From assembly GCA_964347285.1 (NCBI GenBank), contig CAYFYE010000002.1, forward strand, positions 11,075-75,074: a DNA stretch of 64,000 bases. Reading direction: 5' to 3'. The stretch comes from an uncultured Acidimicrobiia bacterium (GTDB lineage: Bacteria > Actinomycetota > Acidimicrobiia > Spongiisociales > JAOTWH01). Position 1 is the stretch's first letter, and each line of letters starts with the position of its first letter. The position numbers and the translations under genes are program-made. This document shows, piece by piece, positions 1,748-63,439 of this stretch. The notes below the pieces were generated by a model, which saw nothing but the letters and a program-made list of their open reading frames with translations, was not told the DNA's origin and made no database searches.

Positions 1748-1786
1748 CAGCTCATCGAGGGCCGTCCCACCGAGTACCGTACGCCC

Positions 1787-22819: not shown

Positions 22820-22938
22820 GGCTCACCTTTCCCGCTCGGCAGCACCTCCAGTTTGGTCGCCGTCACCAAAAGCGTCAACAGTTCACCCAGAGTGTCAACA
22901 CCTTTGCCGGCTCCACCACCTGGTACTCTCGCCGCCGT

Positions 22939-23439: not shown

Positions 23440-23454
23440 CGGGCCTGCCGGCTG

Positions 23455-25128: not shown

Positions 25129-25187
25129 GGTGTGTGGGTTGTGGATCGTCAGCCTAACCAAGCTTCGGCCGTCGCCACCGGACGATT

Positions 25188-44186: not shown

Positions 44187-47100
44187 CTAGCCACCGGCCG
44201 GTGCCAGCTCGAGCAGCAGCCGCCTTCCCCCTATTTCGACGGTGCTCGCTTCGGGCCCGGTGCCTTCAGAGATTCGCTGAGCCAGGATCTCGGCTGCGAT
44301 GAACGCCTGGTGGCTCCGGATGGCGGCCGCCAGCGCATCATCATCGGTGGCCCAGCGCAGCTCGATGCGGTCGCTCACGGCCAGTCCGGCTTCCCTGCGC
44401 AGCGCTTGAGTGCGGTTGACGACCTCGCGGGCCAAGCCCTCGGAGATCAGCTCGTCCGAGAGGGCGCAATCGAGGACCACCACCAACGAGCCTTCCGCTG
44501 CAACGACCTGGCCCCGACGCGGGATCCTGGTCACCACCACATCGCCTCCGCTGATGGTTTCGCCCTCTACTTGGACGGCCCCTCCTTCGACGAGCCGATC
44601 GACGTCCTCGTCGCCCAGGGCGGCAATAGCGGCGGCCACTTGCTTCACCCGGGCGCCCAGGCGGGGTCCGAGCACCCTGAAGTCGGCCTTGGCGCTGAGG
44701 TGAACCAGATCCGCCTCGTGCTCGCCGAGGCGCACCTCCTTGACGTTGAGCTCTTCGCCGATGAGGTCGAGATGGCCGGCGATTGCGGCGCGGGACGCCG
44801 GGTCTCTGGTCACCACGGTCATGCTGGGAAGCGGCTGGCGGACCCGGATCCTCTCGGATACCCGCAGGCCCCGACCCAGATTGACCACCCGGCGGACGAC
44901 GGCCATTGACCGTTCGAGCTGGGCATCGATGAGTGCCGGGTCGGCTTCCGGATAGTCGGTGTGGTGGACGCTGTCGGGGCCATCACCGTCCTCCGGCCGC
45001 TGCCGGACCACGAGGTGGAGGAAGATCTCTTCGGTGACGAACGGAAGGAGGGGTGCCAGGACGCCGGCGAACGTCACCAGCACCTCGTACAGGGTGGCGA
45101 AGGCGGCCGTCTTGTCCCTGTCGTCGCCGGTCTTGGTGCGCCAGAACCGGCGGCGAGAACGGCGGATGTACCAATTGGTGAGGTCGTCGATGAAGGCCAG
45201 CATCGGCGGGACGACCGCATACAGGTAGTAGCCCTCCATCTGCTCGTTTACCCGTTTGATGAGGCTCTGGAGCACGGAAAGGATCCAGCGGTCCACTTCG
45301 GGCCGCTCTGCCGGGGGCGGGGCCGAGGCGAGGTCCTCGGGACCGATGCGGTCGGCCTCGGCATACGTCGTGAAGAACGAATAAGCGTTCCAAAGCGGAA
45401 GCATGACGGTGCGCACCACCTCACGCACACCCTTCTCCGAGAAACGCAGGGTCTCGGCCCGCATCACCGGTGAGTTGATCAGGAAGGCCCGCAAGGCATC
45501 GGCGCCGTTGCGGTTGATGACGTCGATCGGATCCTCGTAGTTCCTCAGGCTCTTCGACATCTTCCGCCCGTCCTCGGCCAGGATCAGCCCGTTGACCACG
45601 CAGTTGCGAAACGGCACCTCGTCGAACAACGCCGTTGCCAAGACCACCAGCGTGTAGAACCACCCGCGGGTCTGGTCGAGGCCCTCGGCGATGTAGTCGG
45701 CCGGAAACAGGGCGGCGAACTCCTCTCGGTTTTCGAAGGGGTAGTGCTGCTGGGCGTAAGGCATCGAGCCCGATTCAAACCAGCAATCCAACACCTCCGG
45801 TATCCGCCTCATCGTTCCGTCGCACCGGGTGCACGGGAAGGTGACCGGATCCACGAAGTGCTTGTGGAGGTCGGTCAGCCGGATCCCCGAGCGCTCTTCC
45901 AGCTCGTCGATCGAGCCGATGCAAACCGTCTCGTCGCACTCCTCACATTCCCATATCGGTATGCAGCTTCCCCAGTAACGGTTGCGACTGATGGCCCAAT
46001 CGCGGGCCTCCTCGAGCCAGTTGCCGAAGCGGCGGGTGCCCACGTAGCCGGGCACCCAGTGAATGGTCTTGTTCAGCTCGACCATGCGGTCCCGGAACGC
46101 CTCGACTCGGACGTACCAGGTGGGAATGGCCTTGTAGATGAGGGGCGTTTCGGTGCGCCAGCAGAACGGGTAGGAGTGGACCAATCGCTCGGAGCGCACC
46201 AGGAGATCGGCCTCGTCCAGCATCTCGACCAGTCGGGCGTCGGCGTCCTTGACGTTCTGGCCGGCTACGTCGGGGACGGCGTCGGTGAACCGACCCTCGG
46301 CATCGACCGGATCGAGCATCACGTCGAGGCCGGCGTCCTGGAGGGCGAAGAAGTCGGCCTCGCCGTAGGCCGGCGCCATGTGCACGAGGCCGGTTCCCTC
46401 TTCCGTGTTTACGTCGTCGGAGGCGATGATCCGAAATGCCCCCCGGTCGCGCTCTTCGGCGAAATACTCGAAAGGCGGCTGGTAGGCCACTCCCAGCAAC
46501 TCGGCGCCGGTGGCCTCATCTGTGATCAGGCCCCCATTCGTGAAATAGCGTTCCACTAGGTCGGCAGCGATCCAGTAGGTGCCCGGATGCCCGTCGATGG
46601 GGCCCTCGACCCGGGCGTACCGGACGTCTTCGGCGACTGCGATGGCCAGATTGCCCGGAAGTGTCCAGGGCGTCGTGGTCCAGATGAGCAGGTGGTCCCC
46701 GGGGCGGACCGGACCGGGGCCGGCGACGACCGGCAGCCGCACGGTGATCGATGGATCCTCGACGTCGCGGTAGTCAAGGTTGGCCTCGAAGTTGGACAGA
46801 GGGGTGGTGGCCCCCCACGAGTAGGGGACGACCTTGAAGTCCTTGTAGATCAGTCCCTTGTTCCACAACTGCTTGAACACCCACCACACCGATTCCATGA
46901 AGTCGACGTCCATGGTCTTGAAGTCGTTCTCGAAATCGACCCAACGGCCGATCCGGCGGGTGACCCTCTCCCAATTCTCGGTGTTGGCCTGGACACGGAG
47001 GCGGCACGCCTCGTTGAACCGATCCTCGCCGAAGGAGGCGATGGCGCTCGGACCGGACAGGCCGAGATCCTGCTGCACCTCCATCTCGATGGGCAGGCCG

Positions 47101-47375
47101 TGCGTGTCCCAGCCGAACCGGCGCTCGATGCGATAGCCGCGCATCGTCCAGTAGCGGGGGACGACGTCCTTGAGTACCCCGGCCAGCAGGTTTCCAAAGT
47201 GAGGACTTCCGGTTGGGAAGGGCGGGCCGTCGTAGAAGGTGTATTCCCGCCCCGGCGGACGCAGTTCCACCGACCGGGCAAAGGCGTCGATCTCGTCCCA
47301 GAACTCGAGGATGCGCTCTTCGAGCGCGGGAAAGTCGACGTCGGGAGCGACTCGACGAAACGGTGTACTGCTCAT
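44187..47375 (-). CDS. ileS: isoleucine--tRNA ligase
   Basis: 1062 aa; HIGH-class (PTGSPHFGN), KMSKS, Zn-finger C-x2-C motifs; actinobacterial/type-2 length. Confidence 0.95.
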   Translation of the reverse strand: MSSTPFRRVAPDVDFPALEERILEFWDEIDAFARSVELRPPGREYTFYDGPPFPTGSPHFGNLLAGVLKDVVPRYWTMRGYRIERRFGWDTHGLPIEMEVQQDLGLSGPSAIASFGEDRFNEACRLRVQANTENWERVTRRIGRWVDFENDFKTMDVDFMESVWWVFKQLWNKGLIYKDFKVVPYSWGATTPLSNFEANLDYRDVEDPSITVRLPVVAGPGPVRPGDHLLIWTTTPWTLPGNLAIAVAEDVRYARVEGPIDGHPGTYWIAADLVERYFTNGGLITDEATGAELLGVAYQPPFEYFAEERDRGAFRIIASDDVNTEEGTGLVHMAPAYGEADFFALQDAGLDVMLDPVDAEGRFTDAVPDVAGQNVKDADARLVEMLDEADLLVRSERLVHSYPFCWRTETPLIYKAIPTWYVRVEAFRDRMVELNKTIHWVPGYVGTRRFGNWLEEARDWAISRNRYWGSCIPIWECEECDETVCIGSIDELEERSGIRLTDLHKHFVDPVTFPCTRCDGTMRRIPEVLDCWFESGSMPYAQQHYPFENREEFAALFPADYIAEGLDQTRGWFYTLVVLATALFDEVPFRNCVVNGLILAEDGRKMSKSLRNYEDPIDVINRNGADALRAFLINSPVMRAETLRFSEKGVREVVRTVMLPLWNAYSFFTTYAEADRIGPEDLASAPPPAERPEVDRWILSVLQSLIKRVNEQMEGYYLYAVVPPMLAFIDDLTNWYIRRSRRRFWRTKTGDDRDKTAAFATLYEVLVTFAGVLAPLLPFVTEEIFLHLVVRQRPEDGDGPDSVHHTDYPEADPALIDAQLERSMAVVRRVVNLGRGLRVSERIRVRQPLPSMTVVTRDPASRAAIAGHLDLIGEELNVKEVRLGEHEADLVHLSAKADFRVLGPRLGARVKQVAAAIAALGDEDVDRLVEGGAVQVEGETISGGDVVVTRIPRRGQVVAAEGSLVVVLDCALSDELISEGLAREVVNRTQALRREAGLAVSDRIELRWATDDDALAAAIRSHQAFIAAEILAQRISEGTGPEASTVEIGGRRLLLELAPAGG

Positions 47376-47650
47376 AGGGGCTCACGCCTCCTGCCCGGCT
47401 CTCTGCCGGGACGGGGCGGCAGCCCCGCGGTACCACCCGGCTTGCCGGGCCGAGGCCCGGCCGCTCGTTGCGCCCGGATGTCGGTGGGCCACCGGCGGGT
47501 TCTACTCCCTACTCCATTTGGCGGAGGGTTTCTTCCCGCGGCTCGGGGATGATGTCCGCCCGGGGCCGCGGCACCGTCCTCGCACCAAGCGACGGCTCGC
47601 TGGGCCGGGTGATCCCGGGCGGCGCCGTTCCCGTCGACGCCGTGGTCGGA
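47376..47650 (-). promoter_or_regulatory. T-box riboswitch leader (isoleucine specifier) upstream of ileS
   Basis: Minus-strand sequence AAGCCGGGUGGUACCGCGGGGC (T-box consensus GGGUGGUACCGCGG) ends about 50 nt upstream of AUG; downstream GGGGC...GCCCC alternative helix, no U-tract, SD GGAGG; upstream GACAUCAUCC offers AUC-A specifier. Confidence 0.6.
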
Positions 47651-48612: not shown

Positions 48613-49505
48613 CCGGCGAGCGCCTCGACAAAGCCGTGGCCGTGCTGGCCGGTCTCAGCCGGACCCAAGCACGTAGGCTCGTCGAAGACCACGCCGCCCT
48701 TGTCGATGGCTCTCCGGCCCGGCCCACCGATCGGGTGACGCCCGGGGCGGTGATCGAGGTGGGGCTTCCCCCAGCCCCGGGCCGCCTCCTGCCCGAGCCG
48801 GTGCCGTTCGACGTGATCTGGGAAGACGAGTACTTGGCGATCGTCGCCAAGCCCTCCGGGGTCGTCGTGCATCCGGGTTCAGGCGCCCGGCGGGGCACCC
48901 TGGCGGCCGGATTGCTGCACCGTTGGCCCCAGCTGGAGGGGGTGGGGGAGCCGGATCGATGGGGCATCGTCCACCGCCTCGATCGGGAGACTTCGGGATG
49001 CCTGCTGGTGGCGAAGACCTCCGAGACGCTCGGAGCGTTGCGGGCGGCGCTGGCGCGCCGCGAGATCGAACGATCGTATTGGGTGCTCGTGCGAGGAGGA
49101 TTCGATGTCCCGGCCGGCACGGTGGATGCTCCGATCGGCCGCGACCGCCGTCATCCGACCCGCTTTGCCGTCGACCCGGCCGGCCGGCCGGCCCGCACCC
49201 ACTACCGGGTGGCGGCGCAATGGGATGAGCCGGCGGTTTCGCTCCTCGAGGTGCACCCCGAAACCGGGCGGACCCATCAGATCCGGGTACACCTGCTGTC
49301 CATCGGGCACCCCGTCGTCGGCGACCGCACCTACGGACGGGTCCCCGGCCTGGGCTCGAAACGGGTATGGCTCCACGCCTTCCGCCTGGAACTGAGGCAC
49401 CCGATCAGCGGCCAACCCATCGACGCCGGCGCACCTCTCCCCGACGAATTGCGCGACGATCTCCGCAATCTGGGTCCCCCCGACCGGGGTGAGCTGCCCG
49501 ACTAG
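48564..49505 (+). CDS. rluD: RluA-family 23S rRNA pseudouridine synthase (RluD-like)
   Basis: GTG 48564 aligns with E. coli RluD N-terminus (TVGAELAGERLDKAV vs TVSENQLGQRLDQAL); HRLDRETSG catalytic Asp motif; S4 domain; overlaps lspA by 49 nt. Confidence 0.85.
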   Translation: MGGPTELCRYTVGAELAGERLDKAVAVLAGLSRTQARRLVEDHAALVDGSPARPTDRVTPGAVIEVGLPPAPGRLLPEPVPFDVIWEDEYLAIVAKPSGVVVHPGSGARRGTLAAGLLHRWPQLEGVGEPDRWGIVHRLDRETSGCLLVAKTSETLGALRAALARREIERSYWVLVRGGFDVPAGTVDAPIGRDRRHPTRFAVDPAGRPARTHYRVAAQWDEPAVSLLEVHPETGRTHQIRVHLLSIGHPVVGDRTYGRVPGLGSKRVWLHAFRLELRHPISGQPIDAGAPLPDELRDDLRNLGPPDRGELPD

Positions 49506-50527
49506 CCGAAGAAGGTGCGGGCCACGTCGTAGAGGCTCTGGGGCACGCCCCGCACCTCGGCACAGGCCTCCTCGAGTGGAACGGCCGTGATGTTCGGGCC
49601 GCGCGAGGCGACCATGACGCCCGAGGCTCCGTCGGCGGCGAAATCGGCGGCCCATACTCCGAGGCGAGTGGCTAGGACTCGGTCGAACGCGGTCGGGACC
49701 CCGCCCCGTTGCACGTGCCCGAGAACGGTGACCCGGCTCTCAAAGCCGGTCAGCTTTTCCAGCTCGGGGGCGATCTGGTAGGCGACCCCGCCGAGGCGGG
49801 CGAAGCCGAAGACGTCGGTCTCCACCGCCCGCTCGTGGCCCGGGGGCGGCTCGACCCCTTCGGCAACGACGACGATCGAGTACGTCCGGCCCCGGCGGTG
49901 CCGCCTCTTGATCGTGGTGGCCACCTCGTCGAGGTCGTAGGGGATCTCCGGGACGAGAATGGCATCGGCCCCGGCTGCGATACCGGAGTGGACGGCAATC
50001 CAACCCTTGGTGCGGCCCATCACCTCCACGATCATCAGGCGGTTGTGCGCCTCGGCGGTGGTGGTGATGCGGTCGATCGCCTCGGTAGCGATCTCCACGG
50101 CGGTGGTGAAGCCGAAGGTGATGTCCGTGCCGGCGATGTCGTTGTCGATGGTCTTGGGGACTCCGACGACGGCCAGGCCCTCTTTGGCGAGGCGAAGGGC
50201 GGTGCGCAGGGTGCCGTCACCTCCGATCACGATGAGACGCTCGATGCCGTTGCGCTCGATCGTGGCCCGGATGCTCTCATAGCCTTCGCCCTGCTCGTAG
50301 GGGTCGCGACGCGATGTGCCCAGGATCGTTCCGCCCCGCTGCAGGATGCCCCGCACGTCATCGCGATCGAGTGGACGGACGTTCCCCTCCATGAGGCCGT
50401 CCCAGCCGTTCAGTACGCCGACCACCTCGGCGTCGTGGACCTCGGTGGCGCGCGATACCACCCCGCGGATGACGGCGTTCAGACCGGGGCAGTCCCCGCC
50501 GGCTGTGAGTACCCCGATGACATCCAT
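49502..50527 (-). CDS. pfkA: 6-phosphofructokinase, actinobacterial ATP-type signature (Gly104/Lys124 equivalents)
   Basis: GGDGT and PKTIDND motifs, 341 aa. Confidence 0.85.
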   Translation of the reverse strand: MDVIGVLTAGGDCPGLNAVIRGVVSRATEVHDAEVVGVLNGWDGLMEGNVRPLDRDDVRGILQRGGTILGTSRRDPYEQGEGYESIRATIERNGIERLIVIGGDGTLRTALRLAKEGLAVVGVPKTIDNDIAGTDITFGFTTAVEIATEAIDRITTTAEAHNRLMIVEVMGRTKGWIAVHSGIAAGADAILVPEIPYDLDEVATTIKRRHRRGRTYSIVVVAEGVEPPPGHERAVETDVFGFARLGGVAYQIAPELEKLTGFESRVTVLGHVQRGGVPTAFDRVLATRLGVWAADFAADGASGVMVASRGPNITAVPLEEACAEVRGVPQSLYDVARTFFG

Positions 50528-50535
50528 CGGTCGGT

Positions 50536-51684
50536 CTAATACAGGAACATGGGCTTGCCGGGGACGTGGCGCACCTTGGGCCGATACTGCCGGACGTCGT
50601 AGAGCTCTTCGACATCGACGTGCTTGGCCCCCGCGCCGGTCACGGTGATGGGCACGTTCGTGTAGATGCCGCTGCGCAGTGAGACCATCCGCCCCGCCGA
50701 GCCCTCGACGGCCAGATCGGCCGCCATGACCGCATAGTTGGAAGCCACCATCAGATCGAGCGAGTCGGGACTCCCGGACCGCATGAGGTAGGCGAGCCGC
50801 TGATTGATGACGTTGACCCCGGTCAGCTCCTTGATCATCTCCCCGCAGATGACCCCGATGCCGCCCAGCTTGCGATGCCCAAAGGCGTCTTCCTCGCCCG
50901 AAAGGACCAGGTCTCCTCCCTCGATGACGGCGCCCTCGGAGATCGTCAGCATCGCATAGTTCGACGGGTTGGCCGCCCGGTCTTCCATGAGGAGGTCGGA
51001 CAGCCGCTTGATGTCCACGGGCACTTCCGAGATCACGGCTCGATCGACTCCGGCCAGGTAGGCGGTGACCAGGGAGGTCTCGCCGCTGTACCGGCCGAAC
51101 AGCTCGACGACTGCGATGCGCTCGTGGGACCCGGCGCTGGTCCGCAGGTTGTGGATGAACTCCACGCCGCGGGTGATGGCGGTGGAGAAGCCGATGCAGT
51201 AGTCGGTGCCGTGGACGTCGTTGTCCATGGTCTTGGGGATGCCCACGATCGGCACGCCCTCCTGGTGGAGGCGGAGCGCGTACGACAGGGTGTCGTCCCC
51301 ACCGATGGGGATCAGGACGTCGAGCTTCAGTGACTCGATGACCGCCAAAACGTGGTCGGTGAAGTCGAAGGGACCCTCTCCGGTCGCCTCGTCCGCCAGG
51401 AACTCGGGGACCTCGGCGGGGCGTACGTTGCTCGGGTTGGTGCGCGAAGTGTGAAGAACGGTCCCGCCGCTGCGATCGATCGTGCGCACCACTCCTTTGT
51501 CGAGAGGGACGATGTTGGCCGCAGCACTGTCCGGGTCGTCGAGGTTGGTGCTCAGCAGCCCGTCCCAGCCCCGGCGGATGCCGATGGTCTCGTGTTCGTC
51601 GTCGGTCACGCGGTACACCGCCGCCTTGATGCAGGCATTCAGGCCGGGCACGTCACCGCCTCCGGTGAGGATCCCGATGCGCAT
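50536..51684 (-). CDS. phosphofructokinase paralog with PPi-type signature (Asp104/Lys124 equivalents)
   Basis: ATG 51684 (aa 40 of ORF); GGDDT and PKTMDND motifs, 382 aa. Confidence 0.8.
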
Positions 51685-52604
51685 TAGCCGGCCGCCTCTT
51701 CGTATACGGCGTGGAAGCGGCGGTAGGCCTCGCCGATCTTGGCGGCCGCCGCCTCGCGTCCCAGGTCGCCCTTGACGAACTCGTCTATTCCCGGGCCCCA
51801 AATCGTCCTTCCTATGGCGAACCCGATATAGCCGTCGACCCCGGCTCCCATCTTCAGCCAGTGCTCGACGGCCCCATCATCGGCTCCCCGGCCGAGCACG
51901 ACCGCCTTGACATCGTCCCGGCCCCCACCTCGGATCAGCCCGGCCAGGAGTTCGCAGCTGCGGCTGCGGTCGAGGCCCTCGATCTTCCAGATGTCGGGTT
52001 CGATGCCGGCCGTCTGGATCTCGCTGATCGACTCCAGGGTGAGGGCGGGACGGAGCTCGGTGTCGTAGGCGGCGGCATCGCCTCCCACCAGCTCGAGCTG
52101 GCGGTCGCTGGCGGGCACCAACAGCTCGAAGAGGAACTTGCGGTCGTGCTGATGAAGCCAATCCGACAGGCGCTTGAGCCGTTCCGACTGGGCCGACTTG
52201 TCGGCAGGGTCGTCGTCCGGATTCCATCGCACCAGCACTTTGGCAAACGAGGGGTCGTACTTCTCGATGTGAGCCGCGAAGTCCTCTCCGAACTCGAAGT
52301 CGAAGACGTCTTGGCCCGACTTCTCCACGGGCATGGCCAGCGTGATGTCCAGCTCCTTGGCCCGGAAGGCGACGTCGGCTCCCATCTCTTCGTCGACCAG
52401 GATGCCGGCACCGGGAAGGGAGCCGTTTCCGGCTGCCGTCAGGAAACCCTCGAAGACGAGCATCTTGGCGTCGCGCAACCTCTCCTGATCCTCGGCTGAT
52501 GGTGTTCCTTCGATGCCGAAGCGCTTGCGAAAACTGCCCCGATGGTCGAACGCGAGGATGAAGAGCTTGCCCTGGTACCCGAGTTGCATGTCCCACTCCT
52601 TCAT
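51684..52604 (-). CDS. class I aldolase-fold protein (LacD/DUF2090-like)
   Basis: N-terminal [14 protein letters not shown] resembles LacD ISALAFDQRGAL region; TIM-barrel-like composition; 4-nt overlap (ATGA) with downstream PFK paralog. Confidence 0.5.
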
Positions 52605-52885: not shown

Positions 52886-53359
52886 ATGGCCCTCAAGGTG
52901 GAGAGATACGAGCGGATCTTCCTCTACCTCACCGTGGTCGTGCTCGTCGCCGGCATCGTTGCGATCGTCCTCAGCGTCGCCGAGGCCAACATCCACCTCC
53001 CCTCGACCGAAGACCGGATCGATCCGCGCCGGGTCGAGGAGACGCCGCCATTCGACGACCCCGGCGTCTTCCAGGCCGGGCCCGACGAGTTTCAGGCGGT
53101 CGTCATCGCTCGGGCCTGGTCATTCGAACCGGCTGAAGTGCGGGTCCCGGCCGGGGCGGAGGTGGAATTCGTCATCACCTCGGCCGACGTCCTGCACGGG
53201 TTTCTGATCCTGGACACCTCGGTCAATGCGATGGTGATCCCCGGCCAGGTGACCAGGGTGACTACGACGTTCGACGAAGCCGGTGAGTACGAGATCGTGT
53301 GCCACGAGTACTGCGGGATCGGCCATCAAGGTATGTTCGGAAAGGTGGTGGCGGAATGA
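52886..53359 (+). CDS. cbaB: cytochrome ba3-type oxidase subunit II (CuA)
   Basis: Single TM then cupredoxin domain; CuA ligands H...CHEYCGIGHQGM; about 157 aa like Thermus CbaB. Confidence 0.85.
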   Translation: MALKVERYERIFLYLTVVVLVAGIVAIVLSVAEANIHLPSTEDRIDPRRVEETPPFDDPGVFQAGPDEFQAVVIARAWSFEPAEVRVPAGAEVEFVITSADVLHGFLILDTSVNAMVIPGQVTRVTTTFDEAGEYEIVCHEYCGIGHQGMFGKVVAE

Positions 53360-55020
53360 CGTCGGCCGCCCCGGCGGCATCGTCTGTCCTGGACACGCTC
53401 GACGTCGACCAGCGGAAGTGGATTCGCCGGCAGCTCTACCTCGCCTTCGCCGGACTGGCGGTGGGCGTGCTGATGGGGCTGCTCCAGGTGCTGGAACGTC
53501 TCAACATAGACCTGTACGACGAGGTCCAGCTACAGAGCTACTACCAGGGCCTCACCATGCACGGCGTGGCGACGGCCATCGTGTTCACGTTTACGTTCTC
53601 CAATGCGTTCCTGGCGCTCGCCACGGCTCGGGGACTGGGCCGGCCCCTCGCCTCCACCAACCTCGTCATCGGTTCGTTCGTCACGGCGGCCCTGGGCCTG
53701 GTGCTGGCACTGGCGGCGATGGTGACCAACTCGGCCACCGTCCTCTACACGTTCTACGCCCCCTTGGAAGCCAGTTCGCTGTTCTATCTGGGGGCGGTGC
53801 TGTTGGTGGTGTCGACGTGGCTGGTCTCGGTCAATCAGCTGCTCACCCTCCGGGCCTGGCGGCGCCAGCATCCCGGTGAGCGAATCCCGCTCCTGGCTTT
53901 CACGTCGATCGTCACCTATTTGATGTGGGATCTGGCTTCGGTGGGAATCGCCGTCGAGGTGGTGGTCTTCCTGTTGCCGTGGGCCCTGGGCTGGGTGGCG
54001 GGCACCGATCCCTTGCTGACCAGGACCCTGTTCTGGTTCACCGGCCATCCGATCGTCTACTTCTGGCTGCTGCCCGCCTACGTGAGCTGGTACATGATGG
54101 TGCCCCGGCGGGCCGGAGGGAAGCTGTACAGCGACGCCATCGTGAGAGCGGTCTTCATCATGTTCCTCTTGCTCTCCACGCCGGTCGGCCTGCACCACCA
54201 GTTCACCGACCCGGGCGTGGACAGCGGCTTGAAGTTCGTGCACGCCATCCTCACCTTCGCCGTCTTTTTCCCGTCCATGGTCACCGCCTTCACCCTCCTC
54301 GCCGCATTCGAGAACGGGGGCCGGGCCCGGGGGGGCAAGGGATTGTTCGGCTGGATCCGCAAGCTTCCTTGGCGGGAGCCCTTCGTCGCCCCACAGCTGC
54401 TGGCCATGCTGGCCTTCACGGTGGGAGGGGCTACCGGGCTCATCAACGCCAGCTTTACCGTCAATCTCGTGGTCCACAACACCGCGTACATACCGGGCCA
54501 CCTCCATCTGACCGTCGGCACGGCGGTGGCCCTGTCGTTCATGGGCATCTCCTACTGGCTGGTGCCTCACCTCACCGGTCGGCGGCTGTTCTCCGATGGG
54601 ATGGCCGTTCTCCAGGCCTGGCTCTATTTCGCGGGGGTGCTGTTGATGTCCCGGGGTCTGATGGGTGCCGGCCTCGAAGGGCAGCCCCGGCGGGTGCCCG
54701 CCAACTCCATTCCCTACCGCCAGGAGGGCTGGTCGACGTTCGATGCGCTCACCGGCCTCGGGGGCGTGCTCATGGTGATCAGCGCCGCCCTGTTCTTCTG
54801 GAACATCATCGCTACGGTGCGCAACCGGGAGCCGGCCCAGGGTGAGGAGCTCACGTTCTCCCTCAGCGAGACCATTCACGGTGCCGACGTGGCTCCTCCA
54901 GCGTTGGATCGCCTCGGCGTGTGGGTCCTGGCGGCGGTCGCCCTGGTGCTCGTTGCCTATCTGCCGGCGCTGGTCACCCAAGGCATCGATCTGAGCTCGC
55001 CCGGCTTCTCCCTGTTCTGA
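53356..55020 (+). CDS. cbaA: cytochrome ba3-type (B-family) oxidase subunit I
   Basis: ATGA overlap with cbaB; 554 aa 13-TM; heme/CuB His motifs (WFTGHP, HHQF, HNTAYIPGHLHL). Confidence 0.9.
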   Translation: MTSAAPAASSVLDTLDVDQRKWIRRQLYLAFAGLAVGVLMGLLQVLERLNIDLYDEVQLQSYYQGLTMHGVATAIVFTFTFSNAFLALATARGLGRPLASTNLVIGSFVTAALGLVLALAAMVTNSATVLYTFYAPLEASSLFYLGAVLLVVSTWLVSVNQLLTLRAWRRQHPGERIPLLAFTSIVTYLMWDLASVGIAVEVVVFLLPWALGWVAGTDPLLTRTLFWFTGHPIVYFWLLPAYVSWYMMVPRRAGGKLYSDAIVRAVFIMFLLLSTPVGLHHQFTDPGVDSGLKFVHAILTFAVFFPSMVTAFTLLAAFENGGRARGGKGLFGWIRKLPWREPFVAPQLLAMLAFTVGGATGLINASFTVNLVVHNTAYIPGHLHLTVGTAVALSFMGISYWLVPHLTGRRLFSDGMAVLQAWLYFAGVLLMSRGLMGAGLEGQPRRVPANSIPYRQEGWSTFDALTGLGGVLMVISAALFFWNIIATVRNREPAQGEELTFSLSETIHGADVAPPALDRLGVWVLAAVALVLVAYLPALVTQGIDLSSPGFSLF

Positions 55021-55802
55021 TGAAAAGGGGAACAACTGCGCTGGTGTTGGCCCTCGTGGCGGTGCTCTCTGGGGCCTCGCCCGCCGCCGGTCAGGACGGG
55101 GAGGAGGTCTACCGGACGAACTGTGCCGGCTGTCACGGCCCCGATGGAGAGGGAGCGGAGGGAGTGTTCCCGCCCTTGGCCGGCAATGAGCGTATCCAGG
55201 ATTCCTCCTATGTGGGCCGGGTGCTGGCAGAGGGCCTGGCCGGCGAGCTCGAGGTAGATGGCGTCACCTACGACGGACAGATGCCGGCGTTCCCCACCCT
55301 GGGCCCGGCCGAGGTCGATGCGGTCATCGCCTACATCCAGGGTTTCGAAGCGGCGGTACCGGCCACCACCGCCGCTCAGGCCATCGTCGTCGATGGCGTC
55401 GGGGACGCTGCCCGGGGCCGAAATTTGTTCGAGGGCCGGGACGGATTGGTCAACGGGGGACCGGCGTGCGTCGCCTGTCATACCGCCGGCGACGTCGGCA
55501 ACCCGGCCGGGGGAGGCTTTGGGGGAGACCTCACCGACGCCTTCGAGCGTCTCGGCAGCGACGCGCTGGCGGCCGCAATCGTCCAGCCGGCGGGGGGCTC
55601 GATGGAGACGCTGTACGGGCCCGACCCGGCGACGCCCCAGGAGGTGGCCGACCTGGTGGCCTTCCTCGGAGGAGCAGCCACCCAGGGGCGAGGGCTCGAC
55701 GCAATCGTGCTGATCGGATTGATCGGACTCGGGGTCGCCCTTGCTGCCACCGCCTTCGCGCTGAAACCGCCACGGACTGAATCGGTGGGAGCAGAGCGAT
55801 GA
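55020..55802 (+). CDS. membrane-anchored diheme cytochrome c
   Basis: Signal peptide; two CxxCH (CAGCHG, CVACHT); C-terminal TM IVLIGLIGLGVALAATAFAL; start overlaps cbaA stop (TGATG). Confidence 0.8.
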   Translation: MKRGTTALVLALVAVLSGASPAAGQDGEEVYRTNCAGCHGPDGEGAEGVFPPLAGNERIQDSSYVGRVLAEGLAGELEVDGVTYDGQMPAFPTLGPAEVDAVIAYIQGFEAAVPATTAAQAIVVDGVGDAARGRNLFEGRDGLVNGGPACVACHTAGDVGNPAGGGFGGDLTDAFERLGSDALAAAIVQPAGGSMETLYGPDPATPQEVADLVAFLGGAATQGRGLDAIVLIGLIGLGVALAATAFALKPPRTESVGAER

Positions 55803-56692
55803 CCGGCGACGAGCTCCTCTACGGGGCCCTGCCCGGCGCGGCGATGATCGTCGCCTTGGTCACCTTGTTGTGGCGGCTGTTCGTCTCGGAGCAACCGCTG
55901 ACGGAGCGAATCCCGCCCGGCGACGACCGGGCGGCGCGGTGGGGATGGTTCTCGGTGCGATGGGGGCTGGGGCTGGCGCTGGCCACCCATCTGGTGGCGC
56001 TGGTGGTTCCCCGGAGCATCGCCGGGTGGAATGCCGTCGAGGCCCGCTTGTATCTCCTCGAAGGCACCGGCCTGGCCATAGGACTGTGGGCCGCAGTGGG
56101 CATCGTCATCCTCGGGGTGCGCTTCGTTCGGGGCCGGGCATCGAAACCGTCCTGGGCCGACTCAGTCGTGGTGGGCCTGGTGGTCGTCGTCGTGTTTTCC
56201 GGGATCGTCATCGCCGTCTTCCACCGCTTCGGATCGTTCTGGGGGGTCGAGGTGATGGTGCCCTACCTCTTTTCGCTGGCAGGTGGCGAACCCCGCCCCG
56301 AGCTGGTCGCCGACCTGCCGGTGGCGGCGAGGATCCACCTACTGGCCGGCTTCGCCCTGGTGGCGGTGTTCCCGTTGTCGCGGTGGCTGGCCGTGCCCGC
56401 TTCCTACGTGGTCGGGGCGTGGCAGATGCTGGCCGGGCCGATCCCGGCCGAAATCCCCCCCGAGGGTCGACGGGGAGGCGATCGTCTCGGCTGGGCGGCG
56501 GCCTGGGTGCGGGGGATCGCCATCGTGGCCTACTTCATCGTGGCCACGGTGTGGCTGCCCTCGTTGGTGTTCGATCGCATGGCCGACGCTCCCCAGTGGG
56601 CCCGCGATGTTGCCGGGTCAGGAGTGTGGCTGGTGGCGGTCGCGATCGGGGTGGCCCTGCTGAGGCGGTTGCAGCAGGCCGCCGAGATCTGA
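55799..56692 (+). CDS. hypothetical polytopic membrane protein (possible heme-b or oxidase-assembly subunit)
   Basis: ATGA overlap with cytochrome c gene; 6-7 TM, conserved His in helices (HLVALVVP, RIHLLAGF). Confidence 0.5.
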   Translation: MTGDELLYGALPGAAMIVALVTLLWRLFVSEQPLTERIPPGDDRAARWGWFSVRWGLGLALATHLVALVVPRSIAGWNAVEARLYLLEGTGLAIGLWAAVGIVILGVRFVRGRASKPSWADSVVVGLVVVVVFSGIVIAVFHRFGSFWGVEVMVPYLFSLAGGEPRPELVADLPVAARIHLLAGFALVAVFPLSRWLAVPASYVVGAWQMLAGPIPAEIPPEGRRGGDRLGWAAAWVRGIAIVAYFIVATVWLPSLVFDRMADAPQWARDVAGSGVWLVAVAIGVALLRRLQQAAEI

Positions 56693-60269: not shown

Positions 60270-61277
60270 TCAGCGCTCACGGATGGTGGCACTGATCTCG
60301 AGGACCCGCCGGCCCCGGACGACCTCGAGGGCCAACGTAGCGCCCACATCGGCCCTTTCGATCTCGGCGACCACATCGTCGACATCGCCGACCTCCTTCC
60401 CATCGATGCCCACGATGATGTCGCCGATCCGGAGTCCGGCGTCGGCGGCCGGCGTCCCCCCGAACACTTCGACCACGAGGACCCCCACGTCGACCGGCAG
60501 GCCGAACTGCGCAGCCGTGCCCGGGCTGTTGGGGAACATCTGGATACCCAGATAGGGCTGGCCTTGGCGGGCCACAGCGGCTTCGACGAACGGCATCGCT
60601 TCGTCGATGAGAATGGCGAATCCGATGTTCTCGGCGCCGCCGGCTACTGCGGTGTTGATGCCGATCACCTCCCCGGCAGCGTTCAGGAGGGGGCCGCCGG
60701 AGTTGCCGGGGTTGATGGCCGCATCGGTCTGGAGGAGATTGCGCAGTGGACCGGTATCGGTCGAGACGGCCCTCCCCAGCGCGGAGACGATACCCACCGA
60801 GACCGAGATGCCGAGGCCGAGTGCGTTGCCGATGGCCACCACCGGATCACCGACCCGGAGTTGCGACGAGCTTCCCAGCGGGATCGGTTCGAGCCCTTCG
60901 TTCTGTTCCACCAGGAGGAGCGCCAGATCGTTGTCGGGAAAAGCGGTGCCGACCACGACGCCGTCCCGTTGGCTGCCGTCGGCTCCGATGACGATCACAT
61001 TGCGAGCCCCGGTGATCACATGGTCGTTGGTGAGTACGTGGCCCTGATCGTCGATGACGATGCCGGTGCCGGTTCCGGCCGGCACCTCGGTGGGCTGCAG
61101 CAGAGCGTCGAGCTGGATCTGGGTACTGGTCACGGTCACCACCCCGTTGCCGACCCGCTCGACGAGATCGGACACGTCGGTGAGCACCAGGTCCCCGCCC
61201 GGCCCGGGTGCATCCGTCGTGGTACTGGTCGAGCACGCGACAGCGGCGACACAGAGGACCACGACGGCACGCTTCAC
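60270..61277 (-). CDS. htrA: HtrA/DegP-family (S1C) serine protease with PDZ domain
   Basis: GTG 61277 (aa 50 of ORF); signal peptide VVLCVAAVAC; triad contexts HVLTNDHVI, DLALL, GNSGGPL; C-terminal PDZ. Confidence 0.85.
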   Translation of the reverse strand: MKRAVVVLCVAAVACSTSTTTDAPGPGGDLVLTDVSDLVERVGNGVVTVTSTQIQLDALLQPTEVPAGTGTGIVIDDQGHVLTNDHVITGARNVIVIGADGSQRDGVVVGTAFPDNDLALLLVEQNEGLEPIPLGSSSQLRVGDPVVAIGNALGLGISVSVGIVSALGRAVSTDTGPLRNLLQTDAAINPGNSGGPLLNAAGEVIGINTAVAGGAENIGFAILIDEAMPFVEAAVARQGQPYLGIQMFPNSPGTAAQFGLPVDVGVLVVEVFGGTPAADAGLRIGDIIVGIDGKEVGDVDDVVAEIERADVGATLALEVVRGRRVLEISATIRER

Positions 61278-61287: not shown

Positions 61288-62319
61288 CTAGGGGAGTCCC
61301 AGTCGGTCGATGTCCAAGCCGGCGGCCGCTTCGACGAGCCCGGCCAGATCCTCCAGTCCGGTGGGAGCCTCCGGCAGCCACGGGATGGTGGCCGGGGCCA
61401 CGCCGTAGCGGGCCGCCAGCTCACGGCGGGCGTGCTCTTGACGAAGCGCTTCTGATCCCCACCGGTCCAGATTGGTGCGCAGGGCCTCCGACGAGCTCGT
61501 TGCTTCGCCGGGGTGAGCCCAGGTCACCGGGAGCGTTCTATTGAAGACGACGAGAGCGGGGGGAGCGGCCACCTCCGGCAGCGCCGTGAAGAACCGGACC
61601 GTCTCCGCCAGCGGGGCCGGGTCGGCGGTGGTGATCACGATCGTGGTGGCGCCCCTCAGTCGACGTTCGACGTGACGAGCCCGGCGGGTCACCCCGTCGT
61701 AGGCAGAGCGCAGATCGAGGAGGAATTCGGCCACCTCTTCCAAAAGCCGGCTTCCCAGGACGGCGTCCGCCAGGCGGAGAGCCGGCCCGGCGGTGAGGCG
61801 GTACAGGCGCCGGCGGGCCGGGAGGCGGGCGCCGGTCAGCCAGCGGAGCAGGCGTCCTCCTACGAGCTTGCGGATGCCGGCGGGAGCCTGGAAGAAGTCG
61901 ATGCCTCCTCCGGCCGGGGGGGTGTCCACGACGACCAGGTCCCATCGTCCCTCCTCGAGGTGGGCGGTCATCTGCTCGGCGGCGGCGTAGGCCTGACCGG
62001 CCGGGAAGCGGGCCGCAATCGCCTGGAAGAAAGGGCTGGCCACGATCCGCTCCGCTGCTTCCGGCGGGGCGTTGCGGCGAATGACGTCGTGCCACGACGA
62101 CTCGGCGTCGAGCATGGCCGCCTGCAGCCCCGGCTGCGGAGTGTCGGTCGGGTCGTTGCCGATGTCGGCCAGGCCCATGGCATCCGCCAATCGCCGGGCC
62201 GGGTCCACCGTCAGGACCAGCGTCCGGCTCCCGGTTCGCGAGGCGGCGACGCCCAGAGCGGCGGCCAGGGTCGTTTTGCCGACGCCGCCGGCCCCGGTCA
62301 CGATCACCGCCCGGGTCAT
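61288..62319 (-). CDS. ArsA/GET3-family ATPase (Rv3679-like member of paired ATPases)
   Basis: ATG 62319 (aa 35 of ORF); IVTGAGGVGKTT, DTPPAG. Confidence 0.8.
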   Translation of the reverse strand: MTRAVIVTGAGGVGKTTLAAALGVAASRTGSRTLVLTVDPARRLADAMGLADIGNDPTDTPQPGLQAAMLDAESSWHDVIRRNAPPEAAERIVASPFFQAIAARFPAGQAYAAAEQMTAHLEEGRWDLVVVDTPPAGGGIDFFQAPAGIRKLVGGRLLRWLTGARLPARRRLYRLTAGPALRLADAVLGSRLLEEVAEFLLDLRSAYDGVTRRARHVERRLRGATTIVITTADPAPLAETVRFFTALPEVAAPPALVVFNRTLPVTWAHPGEATSSSEALRTNLDRWGSEALRQEHARRELAARYGVAPATIPWLPEAPTGLEDLAGLVEAAAGLDIDRLGLP

Positions 62320-63221
62320 GCGTCCTCCCACAGCTCGGCGAGGCGGGCGGCCACCTCGCCCGGTGTGAGCAGGCCGAACAGGTGGGGCAGGGCGGGTCCC
62401 GGCGGCAGGCGCTTGCGCCACAGCTCCTGCTCGCGCTGGAGGCCCAGATGGAGCCGGGCGGCGGCTCCGTAGGGATCGTCGCCCAGAGCGGCCTCATCGA
62501 CATCGAGGGGCTCCAGCATTCGATTGACGACCACGGCAGCCACGTCGATGGCCTGCTCGGCGTCAACCTCTTCGAGCGCTTCGAGGGTCTCGGCGACCGG
62601 GAGCTCCTCGGGAGTGGTGGTGATGACCAGACCGGCGGCACTGCGATCTTCGAGCAATGCCCGCATTCGGGCGGCCTGGTCGCGCACCGGTCCGGCCGGG
62701 ACCAGGCCGGCGATCACCGTCGGGGCCCGCAGGTAGGAGGTCACCTGGCCGAGGGGGGGTCCGTCGGCCACCACGAGGTCCCACTGATCCTCCCAGGTCT
62801 CGAAGATCACCTTGCCCACAGTGATGATGTCGCGTATTCCGGGCACGGTGTCGGCGAGAACGTTCAGCGCCCGGCCCAGCGGTCCCAGCGGGGCGAAGCG
62901 AGGGGCGTGCAGCTGGACGTGGAGATACTCGTCGAGGGCGCTGGAACGGTCGATCGCCATGGCCCACAATCCGGGACGGACCTGGGCGGCGTTGTACCGC
63001 AACTCGGGAGCTCCCAGGTGGAGTCCGAGGCCCTCCCGTTCGAGCATGGCCACGGCCAGCACTCGCTTGCCCTCCGCCGCGGCCCTGATGGCCAGGGCTG
63101 CGGTAGCGGCCGACCGGCCGGTTCCGCCCTTTCCGGTGACGATGAGGAGGCGCCGCTCGAGCACGACCCGGAGCGTAGATCGATCGATACTCTGGTGCGG
63201 GCACGGCGAGCCAAGGAGCAA
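62316..63221 (-). CDS. ArsA/GET3-family ATPase (Rv3680-like member of paired ATPases)
   Basis: IVTGKGGTGRS deviant Walker A, ADGPPLG; ATGA overlap with downstream paralog; alternative GTG start 63164. Confidence 0.8.
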   Translation of the reverse strand: MLLGSPCPHQSIDRSTLRVVLERRLLIVTGKGGTGRSAATAALAIRAAAEGKRVLAVAMLEREGLGLHLGAPELRYNAAQVRPGLWAMAIDRSSALDEYLHVQLHAPRFAPLGPLGRALNVLADTVPGIRDIITVGKVIFETWEDQWDLVVADGPPLGQVTSYLRAPTVIAGLVPAGPVRDQAARMRALLEDRSAAGLVITTTPEELPVAETLEALEEVDAEQAIDVAAVVVNRMLEPLDVDEAALGDDPYGAAARLHLGLQREQELWRKRLPPGPALPHLFGLLTPGEVAARLAELWEDA

Positions 63222-63223: not shown

Positions 63224-63439
63224 GTGGCGGAGTTCGACGTAGACGCGTTCATCTCCCGATTCCGGAGCCGGGCCGAGGCGGTGCGGGAACGGGGGATCCC
63301 GCCCCTGGAGGGCGAGGCCCGGCGCAAGTTCATCGAGCAGGCCGAGCTGGACCACACCGACTACAGCCTCGTCGGGTCGGCATCGTGGAGCGTCGAGGAG
63401 GGGGACCTGGTGCTGAGGATCACGCTCGGCGGCGAGTAG
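63224..63439 (+). CDS. small hypothetical protein
   Basis: 71 aa; start only 2 nt from divergent ArsA-like start if the latter begins at 63221. Confidence 0.35.
   Translation: MAEFDVDAFISRFRSRAEAVRERGIPPLEGEARRKFIEQAELDHTDYSLVGSASWSVEEGDLVLRITLGGE

Follow-up and report, generated by a model that had tools for sequence, protein, structure and literature searches.

Two overlapping genes in a 64-kb stretch of DNA from an uncultured Acidimicrobiia lineage (hereafter, the window) encode ATPases of the family to which arsenite pumps and tail-anchored protein chaperones also belong. This raises the question of whether their products move metalloids, deliver membrane proteins or belong to another kind of ATPase altogether. 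The genes and their junction are as follows.

63164..62316, minus strand: gene A, bagA-like (A subunit), 282 aa, from the open reading frame and sequence
62319..61288, minus strand: gene B, bagB-like (B subunit), 343 aa, from the open reading frame and sequence
62319..62316, minus strand: ATGA overlap of the A stop and B start codons, read directly from the sequence as 'gacgcATGAcccgg'

The most likely start of gene A is the GTG at 63164 (282 aa) rather than the TTG at 63221, because it agrees with the database gene call (protein P0001, 282 aa, 100% identical to gene A) and with the conserved N-terminus of its homologues. Gene B starts at the ATG at 62319 (343 aa) and not at the first GTG of its open reading frame (62421). 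The codon-usage scores of both genes match those of adjacent housekeeping genes. Furthermore, both products have the Pfam ArsA_ATPase domain (E = 1.2e-19 in A and 2e-24 in B), so that open reading frames, overlap and domain matches all agree with the adjacent pair of ArsA-family P-loop ATPases overlapping by ATGA that an earlier note on this DNA had described. A tight junction is also found in the closest related loci, where the distance from the A stop to the start of the B P-loop is 20 nt.

Relationship to mycobacterial BagA and BagB

Sequence and structure comparisons relate each gene to a different chain of the same Mycobacterium tuberculosis (Mtb) complex. The best PDB sequence match of A is 6bs3_A (Rv3679/BagA; E = 2.1e-26, versus 1.5e-11 for 6bs3_B) and that of B is 6bs3_B (Rv3680/BagB; E = 1.7e-48, versus 3.9e-5 for 6bs3_A). 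The same chains are the top Foldseek matches of the AF2 models of A (pLDDT 90.6; 6bs3_A, 5.2e-18) and B (pLDDT 87.7; 6bs3_B, 1.7e-20). The best NCBIfam models are BagA for A (NF053622, 126.4 bits) and BagB for B (NF053621, 196.9 bits). The NCBIfam equivalogs denote strict Mtb orthologues with whole-protein scores of at least 400 (BagA) or 521 (BagB) bits, and because both scores fall far under these cut-offs, the pair is a divergent Acidimicrobiia member of a wider BagAB-like family rather than a strict orthologue. The likeness to Rv3679/Rv3680 that the earlier note had proposed is thus borne out by chain-specific matches to 6BS3, with far weaker cross-matches, and by predicted folds and NCBIfam models that concur. 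The proposed gene order also holds, with the Rv3679-type gene first; the Acidimicrobiia products are ~15% shorter.

The Acidimicrobiia and Mtb pairs (Rv3679/Rv3680; PDB 6BS3–6BS5) both consist of neighbouring genes that run in the same direction, with the A type leading, and encode single-domain Get3/ArsA folds with chain-specific best sequence and fold matches. Both also have a signature lysine in the A subunit (GKGGTGKS in Mtb BagA) and none in the B subunit (GAGGVGKT in both), the switch I DPA(K/R)RL of BagB, and no metalloid- or zinc-binding cysteine motif in either subunit. They differ in the host, here an uncultured Acidimicrobiia lineage, and in sequence (~29–34% identity). Gene A, unlike Mtb BagA, has an arginine in place of the P-loop lysine and a leucine where Mtb BagA has a glutamate. 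The flanks differ as well: thyX, a gene for a 71-aa protein and MscS lie on one side and HtrA and dnaE on the other, whereas Mtb bagAB has DUF3107 upstream and whiB4 and ponA2 downstream.

The locus represents no new kind of system but one that is already known and poorly understood. BagA/BagB is a conserved M. tuberculosis pair tied to glycerol/methylglyoxal and nitric-oxide toxicity, citrate killing and streptomycin survival. For example, bagAB mutants are sensitive to glycerol and nitric oxide and tolerant to citrate (PMC10597346), and they have a streptomycin survival phenotype (PMC12216072). By extension from mycobacteria, the Acidimicrobiia pair may be an ATPase with a stress-protection or an envelope- or lipid-linked role.

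We compared the pair with 80 related loci from several phyla, 77 of which hold upstream DNA. The loci are spread over Acidimicrobiia, Actinomycetes, Dormibacterota, Myxococcota, Desulfobacterota, Planctomycetota and further groups; the BagAB-like family thus reaches well beyond the Actinobacteria. An A-type gene lies directly upstream of the B-type gene in 72 of the 77. The typical, though not strictly defining, actinobacterial bagAB setting has DUF3107 upstream and, downstream and in the opposite orientation, a WhiB-family gene; 34 of the related loci contain WhiB and 20 contain DUF3107. This WhiB, DUF3107 and PdtaS neighbourhood is missing at the Acidimicrobiia locus, and the pair has neither WhiB nor DUF3107 close by, whether in the window or across the window-type clade (L001 and L004–L012). 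No genome in the set gave two loci, a weak indication that the window-type pair has no second copy in its lineage.

Asymmetry of the nucleotide sites

Dimers of the Get3, ArsA, MinD and NifH type have an intradimeric Walker A lysine with an established role. The Walker A motif of A (GKGGTGRS) keeps this signature lysine (Lys12) and has an arginine (Arg17) in place of the canonical P-loop lysine; A also has no DPA switch I, with Leu41 at the position of the aspartate. B carries the complementary set, with a Walker A motif (GAGGVGKT) that keeps the P-loop lysine (Lys15) and is missing the signature lysine, a switch I of TVDPARR (Asp39) and a switch II of DTPP (Asp132). Leu41 was placed at the catalytic aspartate position by alignment register and AF2 secondary structure.

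The same division of motifs is seen across 63 A and 74 B sequences from the related loci. The signature lysine is present in every A (63/63; GKGG) and in no B (0/74), whose motif reads G[SAP]GG. The P-loop lysine is invariant in B (74/74), and in A it is a lysine in 61 sequences and an arginine in two. The switch I motif TxDPAxR is invariant across the B sequences, while the A residue at the switch I aspartate position varies (aspartate in 23, glutamate in 14, glycine in 11, asparagine in seven and others in the rest). The switch II aspartate is invariant in both subunits. The two nucleotide sites are, thus, non-equivalent family-wide, and the A site is furthest gone in the lineage of the window, which has neither the P-loop lysine nor an acidic switch I residue.

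The motif asymmetry between A and B suggests a single catalytic site in B. We assign a probability of about 70% to the reading that the two genes encode the subunits of a BagA/BagB-type, Get3-like heterodimeric P-loop ATPase with one hydrolytic site, located in B. Judging from the crystal structure of the homologous Mtb BagA-BagB, A and B would form a nucleotide-sandwich dimer, and translational coupling through the ATGA overlap would supply them in matched amounts. B holds the full cis catalytic set (Lys15, Asp39 and Asp132) and lacks the intradimeric signature lysine, which A could donate in trans (Lys12). The A site would receive no such lysine from B, lacks a DPA switch I and, in this lineage, has an arginine at position 17; it may therefore bind nucleotide in a structural or regulatory role, with hydrolysis confined to the B site and activated when A docks. 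We infer heterodimer formation and single-site catalysis from 6BS3 and the complementary motifs; asymmetric sites have a precedent in the ArsA of E. coli (PDB 1F48), whose two non-equivalent nucleotide-binding halves form a pseudo-dimer.

The motif data also bear on the idea that A and B are independent, homodimeric ATPases of the ParA/MinD type, adjacent merely through an old tandem duplication. Both proteins have weak matches to ParA/MinD/CbiA-type models, and they share just 28% identity with each other across ~150 residues. However, the complementary motifs (signature lysine in A only, invariant switch I in B only) recur in every examined pair across phyla, adjacency is retained in the 72 loci noted above, the genes are translationally coupled, and the Mtb homologues were crystallised as an A-B complex (title of 6BS3). 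Independent homodimers are, consequently, very improbable.

A could, on the other hand, be a decaying pseudo-enzyme in this lineage, leaving B as the only functional protein, as might be expected from Arg17 and Leu41 at positions that are catalytic in relatives. Yet A is intact, has a codon-usage score equal to that of B and a confident AF2 model, is 53–61% identical to many homologues and retains 45 invariant columns that include the signature lysine. The arginine is carried by 38 of the 119 close A homologues in an otherwise conserved protein, and arginine- and lysine-type homologues differ at four positions only. We therefore give decay little credence and favour the heterodimer with a single hydrolytic site in B, with the caveat that the arginine-containing P-loop of A may still allow nucleotide binding and even hydrolysis. 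Whitaker et al. in 2020 reportedly found that both Mtb subunits need intact ATP-binding motifs, and the A site would for this reason not be dispensable in Mtb.

A broader proposal, which we advance tentatively and rate well below the assignment of the pair itself, is that BagAB-type proteins are ancient, multi-phylum and obligately asymmetric Get3-fold ATPases in which A is a non-catalytic activator and B is the sole hydrolytic subunit and also the basic, client-binding one. If so, A would donate the intradimeric lysine and bind nucleotide for structural purposes only. The replacement of the P-loop lysine by arginine, found at this locus and in roughly one in three close Acidimicrobiia homologues, would in that case amount to a natural experiment indicating that A need not hydrolyse ATP. 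Under the same proposal, a role in redox or lipid-storage homeostasis would be suggested by the genes that recur beside the pairs, namely WhiB and PdtaS in Actinomycetota and PhaR/phasin-like regulators in Myxococcota and Desulfobacterota.

Arsenic and the putative client

The Pfam family of both genes is ArsA_ATPase and several source databases label their homologues 'arsenite-transporting ATPase', as would be expected if A and B were the A1 and A2 halves of an ArsA arsenite/antimonite pump split into separate genes to power an ArsB or ACR3 exporter. E. coli ArsA shares the Pfam family with the pair. It differs from the pair in joining A1 and A2 in a single chain of ~583 aa, in carrying a DTAPTGHT signal motif and three cysteines that bind metalloids, and in being encoded beside ArsB and ArsD in an ars operon. 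A and B are single-domain proteins (282 and 343 aa) rather than fused A1-A2 chains of ~580 aa, their scores against the ArsA model TIGR04291 (27.5 and 36.4 bits) are far from its cut-off of 650, and their nearest structures are BagA and BagB, not 1F48. Furthermore, neither protein contains a single cysteine, which makes a thiolate metalloid site impossible.

The gene neighbourhood leads to the same answer. No ArsB/ACR3, ArsC, ArsD or ArsR domain was found among the scanned called genes of the window, a scan that covered all but ~14 dcw/mur genes (28.8–40.9 kb and 42.0–43.3 kb), ileS, COX1 and dnaE, which were recognised by context or otherwise. The flanks outside the window, recovered from sibling contigs (L001, 94% DNA identity; L084, 99.9%), have no ars genes either. 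The earlier note had remarked on the lack of arsB, arsC and arsR partners, had proposed a non-arsenic role and had named two observations that would speak against it, ars genes just outside the window and duplicated A1/A2 halves; the lack of partners stands in the scanned genes and recovered flanks, neither of the two observations was made, and the non-arsenic role agrees with the single domains and the missing cysteines. Because A and B are cysteine-free and no ars genes are nearby, we conclude that the pair is not an arsenic pump and is unconnected to arsenite. The split pump is effectively refuted already, and the routine database label 'arsenite-transporting ATPase' is hereby corrected for genes of the A and B type.

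Get3/TRC40 is the ATPase that targets tail-anchored (TA) proteins in eukaryotes and archaea. The pair has its fold and its switch I/II logic and is predicted to share its dimeric arrangement, a nucleotide sandwich with an intradimeric Walker A motif (a term used in PMC10248533). Beyond switch II, B alone has the inserted helical subdomain as well. This insert spans ~70 residues and occupies the place where Get3 has its client-binding helices, whereas A is missing the ~55–60-residue helical insert found in B and in canonical Get3 relatives. Get3/TRC40 is a symmetric homodimer with a zinc-CXXC clamp and a methionine-rich hydrophobic groove contributed by both subunits. The pair, in contrast, is predicted to be an asymmetric, cysteine-free heterodimer with an arginine-rich insert in one subunit.

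These differences weigh on the possibility that the pair is a bacterial Get3, a chaperone whose composite groove takes up hydrophobic tail anchors or transmembrane segments for delivery to the membrane. Both AF2 models have the Get3 fold (TM-scores of ~0.6–0.76 against Get3 structures), the helical subdomain of B is in the right place, and binding of TA proteins is known for some Get3 homologues from archaea and from cyanobacteria/plants (PMC6593721, PMC10248533). However, A is missing the second half of the helical subdomain, which leaves half a groove at most, and the B insert contains 16 arginines, no methionine and seven aspartates and glutamates, with many invariant polar columns and conserved positions that are mostly polar or charged. 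The CXXC motif is absent from A and B, and the scores against TIGR00345 (65.6 bits for A and 73.0 for B) are below the cut-off of 135. To our knowledge, bacteria have no Get1/Get2-like receptor, which also counts against delivery of this kind. We consider a bacterial Get3 unlikely, if somewhat less so than independent homodimers or a decaying A. The sequence argues against a role of the pair in membrane insertion because the client subdomain is present only in B and is arginine-rich and methionine-free. For the BagA/BagB-type heterodimer, only B would bear the equivalent of the Get3 client groove; as its subdomain is rich in arginine, free of methionine and marked by invariant polar residues, its client is probably a specific, anionic ligand or partner rather than a hydrophobic tail anchor.

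Neighbouring genes and the distant ArsA-HSP20 gene

Two genes adjoin the pair in the window.

60270..61277, minus strand: HtrA/DegP-type serine protease with a PDZ domain (Pfam Trypsin_2 and PDZ_2; NCBIfam degP_htrA_DO, 3.4e-74)
63224..63439, plus strand, divergent from A: conserved 71-aa protein with no Pfam or NCBIfam match

The HtrA gene is probably co-transcribed with the pair because it starts 10 nt past the B stop. We rejected it as a conserved partner: it is found at this position only in the near-identical contigs L001–L003 and is missing after B in L004–L012 and L088. The linkage is, thus, specific to this lineage. The scan for promoters and terminators (59.8–64 kb) found none, as did the searches for Rfam families at gathering thresholds and for tRNAs.

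The 71-aa protein is represented by 178 clusters and its gene is next to A both in the window and in eight related loci (L001, L005–L010 and L088). It was considered as a dedicated third component and rejected, as the gene tracks thymidylate-synthase genes among relatives: it adjoins thyX or thyA-folA in L001, L005–L010 and L088–L091, with a 551-aa ThyX, a ThyA-FolA or, on short contigs with no visible A or B gene, a 226-aa ThyX as the partner. Adjacency to A is therefore best read as lineage synteny. Nor is the protein a counterpart of DUF3107, the small protein encoded upstream of canonical bagA, to which it is unrelated (hhalign probability 0.03).

A third ArsA-family gene is part of a cluster at the start of the window.

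4..381, plus strand: SRPBCC/polyketide-cyclase-like gene (Pfam), cut by the window start; full length 144 aa
381..1550, plus strand: Get3/ArsA-family ATPase with a C-terminal HSP20/alpha-crystallin-like domain, 389 aa (Pfam)
1547..1747, plus strand: 66-aa open reading frame with no family match
1841..2182, plus strand: DUF1232 membrane protein (Pfam, 1.2e-13)
2194..2889, plus strand: membrane protein with a marginal LiaF-TM match (Pfam, 28.1 bits against a cut-off of 27)

The fusion that the earlier note had recognised at 381..1550 is confirmed by the Pfam domains ArsA_ATPase (4e-87, residues 1–302) and ArsA_HSP20 (9e-18, residues 323–385). The active site is intact (GKGGVGKTT and DPAHS), the score against TIGR00345 (GET3_arsA_TRC40; 265 bits) exceeds the cut-off of 135, and the best PDB matches are 5zme (1e-53) and the archaeal TRC40 3zq6 (3e-46). 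Its homologues are 70–80% identical, and all 120 listed share the architecture. This architecture matches 'Group 6' of the bacterial Get3 homologues, in which an alpha-crystallin domain forms the C-terminus (PF17886; Bodensohn et al., 2019, PMC6593721) and which is reported from Actinobacteria among other phyla. Counting this gene together with the pair as three ArsA-like ATPases, as the earlier note had done, is unjustified: it belongs to a different Get3-like group and lies 60 kb away. It was also considered as a member of Get3d, a photosynthesis-associated clade (PMC10248533), and rejected, since it matches 3IGF (1.4e-21) and 8ELF (4.7e-11) far more weakly than 5zme and 3zq6, and its P-loop and switch I are intact.

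Of the two membrane proteins that the earlier note had placed downstream, DUF1232 is clear and follows the 66-aa open reading frame, in a position kept in L084 and L086; the LiaF-like assignment is marginal, and the gene is missing from L086, a 74%-identical relative. What sets the gene apart from 'Group 6' as described is its conserved cluster of SRPBCC, ArsA-HSP20, small open reading frame and DUF1232. The SRPBCC stop and the ArsA-HSP20 start share 1 nt (TGATG), an arrangement kept in L084 and L086, and the 66-aa open reading frame overlaps the ArsA-HSP20 stop by ATGA (1547..1550), where a relative has a 60-aa gene.

The BagAB-like gene pair

Two ArsA-family genes, A and B, follow one another in the same direction on the minus strand (61288..63221) in high-GC DNA (67.5% G+C) of an uncultured Acidimicrobiia bacterium:

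62316..63164, minus strand: gene A (bagA-like), 282 amino acids
61288..62319, minus strand: gene B (bagB-like), 343 amino acids

The earlier note described an adjacent ArsA-family pair with overlapping stop and start codons. We confirmed both features: the A stop codon overlaps the B ATG in 'gacgcATGAcccgg' at 62316..62319, as read from the sequence, and both products match Pfam ArsA_ATPase (1.2e-19 for A and 2e-24 for B). The coordinates proposed for the pair also stand, except for the right-hand end, which was placed 57 nt too far. A most likely starts at GTG 63164, because the resulting 282-aa product is identical to a database protein (P0001) and has the N-terminus MLDRRLL.V(S/T)GKGG common to its homologues. 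For B, which starts at ATG 62319 (343 aa), recorded gene calls are identical and the homologues have the consensus N-terminus MTRA.LVTGAGGVGKTT. Codon-usage scores for A and B equal those of their neighbors in a model trained on the window's housekeeping genes, and the closest homologues of each gene examined are proteins from Acidimicrobiia MAGs.

The identity of the pair was predicted correctly as Rv3679/Rv3680-like, with the gene order of Mycobacterium tuberculosis (Mtb), and chain-specific matches to the solved BagA-BagB complex (PDB 6BS3) bear this out in sequence and fold. Against all PDB sequences, A matched chain A (Rv3679) best (2.1e-26), followed by chain B (1.5e-11), whereas B matched chain B (Rv3680) at 1.7e-48 and chain A at only 3.9e-5. 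AlphaFold models built from 30-sequence alignments were confident (pLDDT 90.6 for A and 87.7 for B), and their top Foldseek hits in the PDB were 6bs3_A for A (5.2e-18, TM 0.79) and 6bs3_B for B (1.7e-20); both chains ranked above archaeal and eukaryotic Get3 and E. coli ArsA. The best NCBIfam models were the BagA and BagB equivalogs, yet the scores (126 and 197 bits) fell far under the cut-offs (400 and 521, respectively). Thus, sequence places the pair in a wider BagAB-like family with the Mtb gene order and not among strict orthologues. The family is already known and structurally solved, though functionally obscure, and as one of its divergent members the locus adds little new.

An arsenic pump is ruled out on several grounds. 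A and B are single-domain proteins, not duplicated A1/A2 halves, with TIGR04291 (ArsA equivalog) scores of 27 and 36 bits (cut-off 650). ArsA has a thiolate metalloid site and Get3 a Zn-CXXC clamp; neither A nor B contains a single cysteine, which excludes both. As first reported for arsB, arsC and arsR, the window revealed no lookalike of ArsB/ACR3, ArsC, ArsD or ArsR among the Pfam-scanned genes (all those called window-wide, minus obvious dcw/mur, ileS, COX1 and dnaE genes). Genes recovered from sibling contigs outside both window ends were also non-ars, with no arsB, arsD or arsR immediately adjacent. The left flank, on L084 (99.9% identical to the window start), carries a QueG-like gene and an unknown 252-aa gene, then the SRPBCC gene. 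The right flank, on L001 (94% identical to the window end), has the rest of MscS followed by a 551-aa ThyX, an EamA transporter and an ABC ATPase. Overall, the observation and main interpretation of the earlier note were correct.

Complementary motifs and a proposed single-site model

We ran a B-homologue alignment against one genome per GTDB species and used the best 80 of 416 confirmed loci. These came from Acidimicrobiia, other Actinomycetota, Dormibacterota, Myxococcota, Desulfobacterota, Bdellovibrionota, Planctomycetota, Gemmatimonadota and Acidobacteriota. Upstream DNA was present in 77 loci, and in 72 of these the gene immediately before the B-type gene was of A type and co-directional; the five exceptions were Polyangiaceae or deltaproteobacterial.

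In Get3/ArsA/MinD/NifH-type dimers, a signature lysine from one protomer contacts the nucleotide bound to the other. We tallied the motif positions in 63 A and 74 B sequences. The signature lysine (first K of GKGGxGK[ST]) of this intradimeric Walker A motif (PMC10248533) is present in 63/63 A sequences and 0/74 B sequences, which have Ser, Ala or Pro there. The canonical P-loop lysine is invariant in B (74/74) and replaced by Arg in two A sequences (61 Lys). Switch I is an invariant TxDPAxR in B, whereas the Asp position varies in A (D23, E14, G11, N7 and others); the switch II Asp is invariant in both. Mtb BagA (GKGGTGKS) and BagB (GAGGVGKT) have the same Walker A pattern.

Because this pattern leaves only the B site complete, with its own P-loop Lys and switch I Asp plus the signature Lys from A, we propose that A and B form an obligate heterodimer in which B holds the one hydrolytic site and A docking would switch it on. 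The A site, with its relaxed switch I, no signature lysine supplied by B and, here, an altered P-loop, would then be a nucleotide-dependent structural or regulatory site. The non-equivalent A1 and A2 halves of E. coli ArsA are a precedent for such asymmetry. Whitaker et al. (2020) reportedly found that both subunits require intact ATP-binding motifs, which speaks for a role of the A site, at least in binding.

The altered P-loop of the window A (GKGGTGRS) has Arg17 in place of the lysine, and alignment register and predicted secondary structure suggest that Leu41 occupies the catalytic Asp position. Arg17 is genuine, since it recurs in the 94%-identical strain (L001) and in 38 of the 119 closest homologues. 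Only three further positions distinguish Arg-type from Lys-type homologues, and A is well conserved (45 invariant columns across 30 homologues). The A-type gene of a Dormibacterota locus (L021) also encodes GKGGTGRS, so the substitution apparently arose more than once. The multi-phylum spread, strictly complementary subunit motifs and natural Arg variant are useful by-products of the survey and make single-site catalysis a testable model.

B also has a ~55–60-residue helical insert after switch II that A lacks and that the window's canonical Get3-like protein contains. In B, this region (residues ~153–224) has 16 Arg, 7 acidic residues and no Met, and many invariant polar columns (W160, T162, G163, R169, D185, D202, R204 and D208). 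It bears little resemblance to a promiscuous hydrophobic groove; its composition and invariant columns point to a specific, probably anionic, ligand or partner. A physiological role can be suggested only by analogy to mycobacteria, where bagAB is protective against glycerol-derived and nitric-oxide toxicity, and where citrate tolerance results from insertions in M. smegmatis (PMC10597346). Furthermore, transposon mutants of Rv3679/Rv3680 survive streptomycin better (PMC12216072).

Genomic neighborhoods of the pair

A rough neighbor-joining tree of B grouped the window-type pairs (L001, L004–L012) in their own clade, adjoining an Acidimicrobiales clade with the order DUF3107–A–B–PdtaS-like kinase–WhiB. 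An Actinomycetes clade with WhiB and a class A PBP, which is the arrangement of Mtb (whiB4, ponA2), was placed elsewhere. The window-type clade has no DUF3107, PdtaS-like kinase, WhiB or class A PBP neighbors. Among the best 80 of 416 loci, a WhiB-family gene lay on the opposite strand in 34, and actinobacterial pairs were followed by a PdtaS-type GAF/PAS histidine kinase (17 loci) or a response regulator (11). DUF3107 was upstream in 20 loci of this recurrent actinobacterial neighborhood (L013–L040, L046–L078 and others). Elsewhere, a PhaR-like gene (PHB_acc_N plus phasin-like region) directly precedes the pair, ~1.3 kb before the A-type gene on the same strand (L042, L051, L057, L065, L069, L071, L072 and L081, from Myxococcota, Desulfobacterota, Gemmatimonadota and Thermoanaerobaculia), which hints at a link to storage-lipid (PHA) granules.

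In the window, an HtrA-type protease gene starts 10 nt past B and is probably co-transcribed with it; this linkage is confined to near-identical contigs. Divergently transcribed upstream of A is a small gene with several related copies:

Copies of the ~70-aa gene
Window, 63224..63439, plus strand (71 aa)
L001, 7381-7596
L088, 6769-6981
L005–L010
L089–L091

Its adjacency to A is kept in the window-type clade. As a part of the A/B system it was rejected, for more distant relatives carry it beside thyX without any visible A/B gene; nor is it related to DUF3107. The protein is conserved (178 representative clusters at E<=1e-3), has no Pfam or NCBIfam match and adjoins thymidylate-synthase genes (551-aa ThyX, ThyA-FolA or 226-aa ThyX) in every contig examined. 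It may be an uncharacterized thyX/thyA-associated small protein. The 551-aa product (Thy1 match; L001 4935-6590, just past the window's right end) is about twice the usual ThyX length (226 aa in L090) and may be a tandem fusion. It has homologues in L005–L010, with 56–61% identity in related Acidimicrobiia.

The ArsA-HSP20 gene and other window features

A third ArsA-family gene lies near the window start:

381..1550, plus strand: ArsA-HSP20 fusion, 389 amino acids

Pfam bore out the predicted fusion, a full ArsA/Get3 domain plus an ArsA_HSP20 domain. Its GKGGVGKTT/DPAHS site is intact, and it scores 265 bits against TIGR00345 (Get3/ArsA/TRC40; cut-off 135). Among solved structures it is nearest to Chlamydomonas ArsA1 and archaeal TRC40 rather than photosynthetic Get3d, and homologues across Acidimicrobiia are 70–80% identical, far above A or B conservation. 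The protein corresponds to the alpha-crystallin-bearing 'Group 6' of bacterial Get3 homologues, already catalogued with Actinobacteria included (PMC6593721). It belongs to a conserved cluster (window 4..2182, L084 and L086) of SRPBCC, ArsA-HSP20, a small ORF (60–66 aa) and DUF1232, with overlaps of 1 nt with SRPBCC (TGATG) and 4 nt with the small ORF (ATGA). Because this order persists in a relative with 74% identity in the ArsA-HSP20 protein, the genes may form a functional module around a Get3-like chaperone. The LiaF-like gene after DUF1232 is not conserved in the relative's contig. In a related organism, both ArsA-family loci are present on one 436-kb contig, ~50 kb apart and in unchanged order; we found nothing that ties this gene to the A/B pair in function.

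Other genes of the window
fabD-fabH-fabG-acpP-fabF cluster
dinB
MoxR-DUF58-TgpA
mraZ, dcw cluster, ftsZ
sepF
44187..47375, minus strand: ileS
Two PFK genes
Cytochrome oxidase cluster
dnaE
22301..22813, minus strand: small serine recombinase (resolvase)
22939..23439, plus strand: HNH endonuclease
23455..25161, minus strand: 568-aa product, no Pfam match

L001 and the window are collinear over the last part of the window alone, from ~57.3 kb onwards. Past dnaE, L001 has a 209-aa gene, a single PFK gene and a WS/DGAT wax-ester synthase (13602-16982), in place of which the window carries a nitrate-reductase-gamma-like gene, cytochrome c and a COX1/COX2 cluster (52886..56692); the divergence is either a strain-level rearrangement or an assembly chimera. 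The tandem phosphofructokinase-family genes (49502..52604, minus strand) differ from each other (341 and 382 aa) and are preceded by a DUF2090 gene, a trio also kept in L088. Upstream of ileS, the 411-nt gap holds a weak match over the full length of the T-box leader (47404..47646, minus strand; 30.4 bits versus a gathering score of 93; E=5.6e-5 in a local search), consistent with a divergent ileS T-box, a kind of leader known in Actinobacteria. Finally, the resolvase, HNH and 568-aa genes (22301..25161), flanked by the MoxR-DUF58-TgpA cluster and a Usp gene, could together constitute a small mobile or defence islet.
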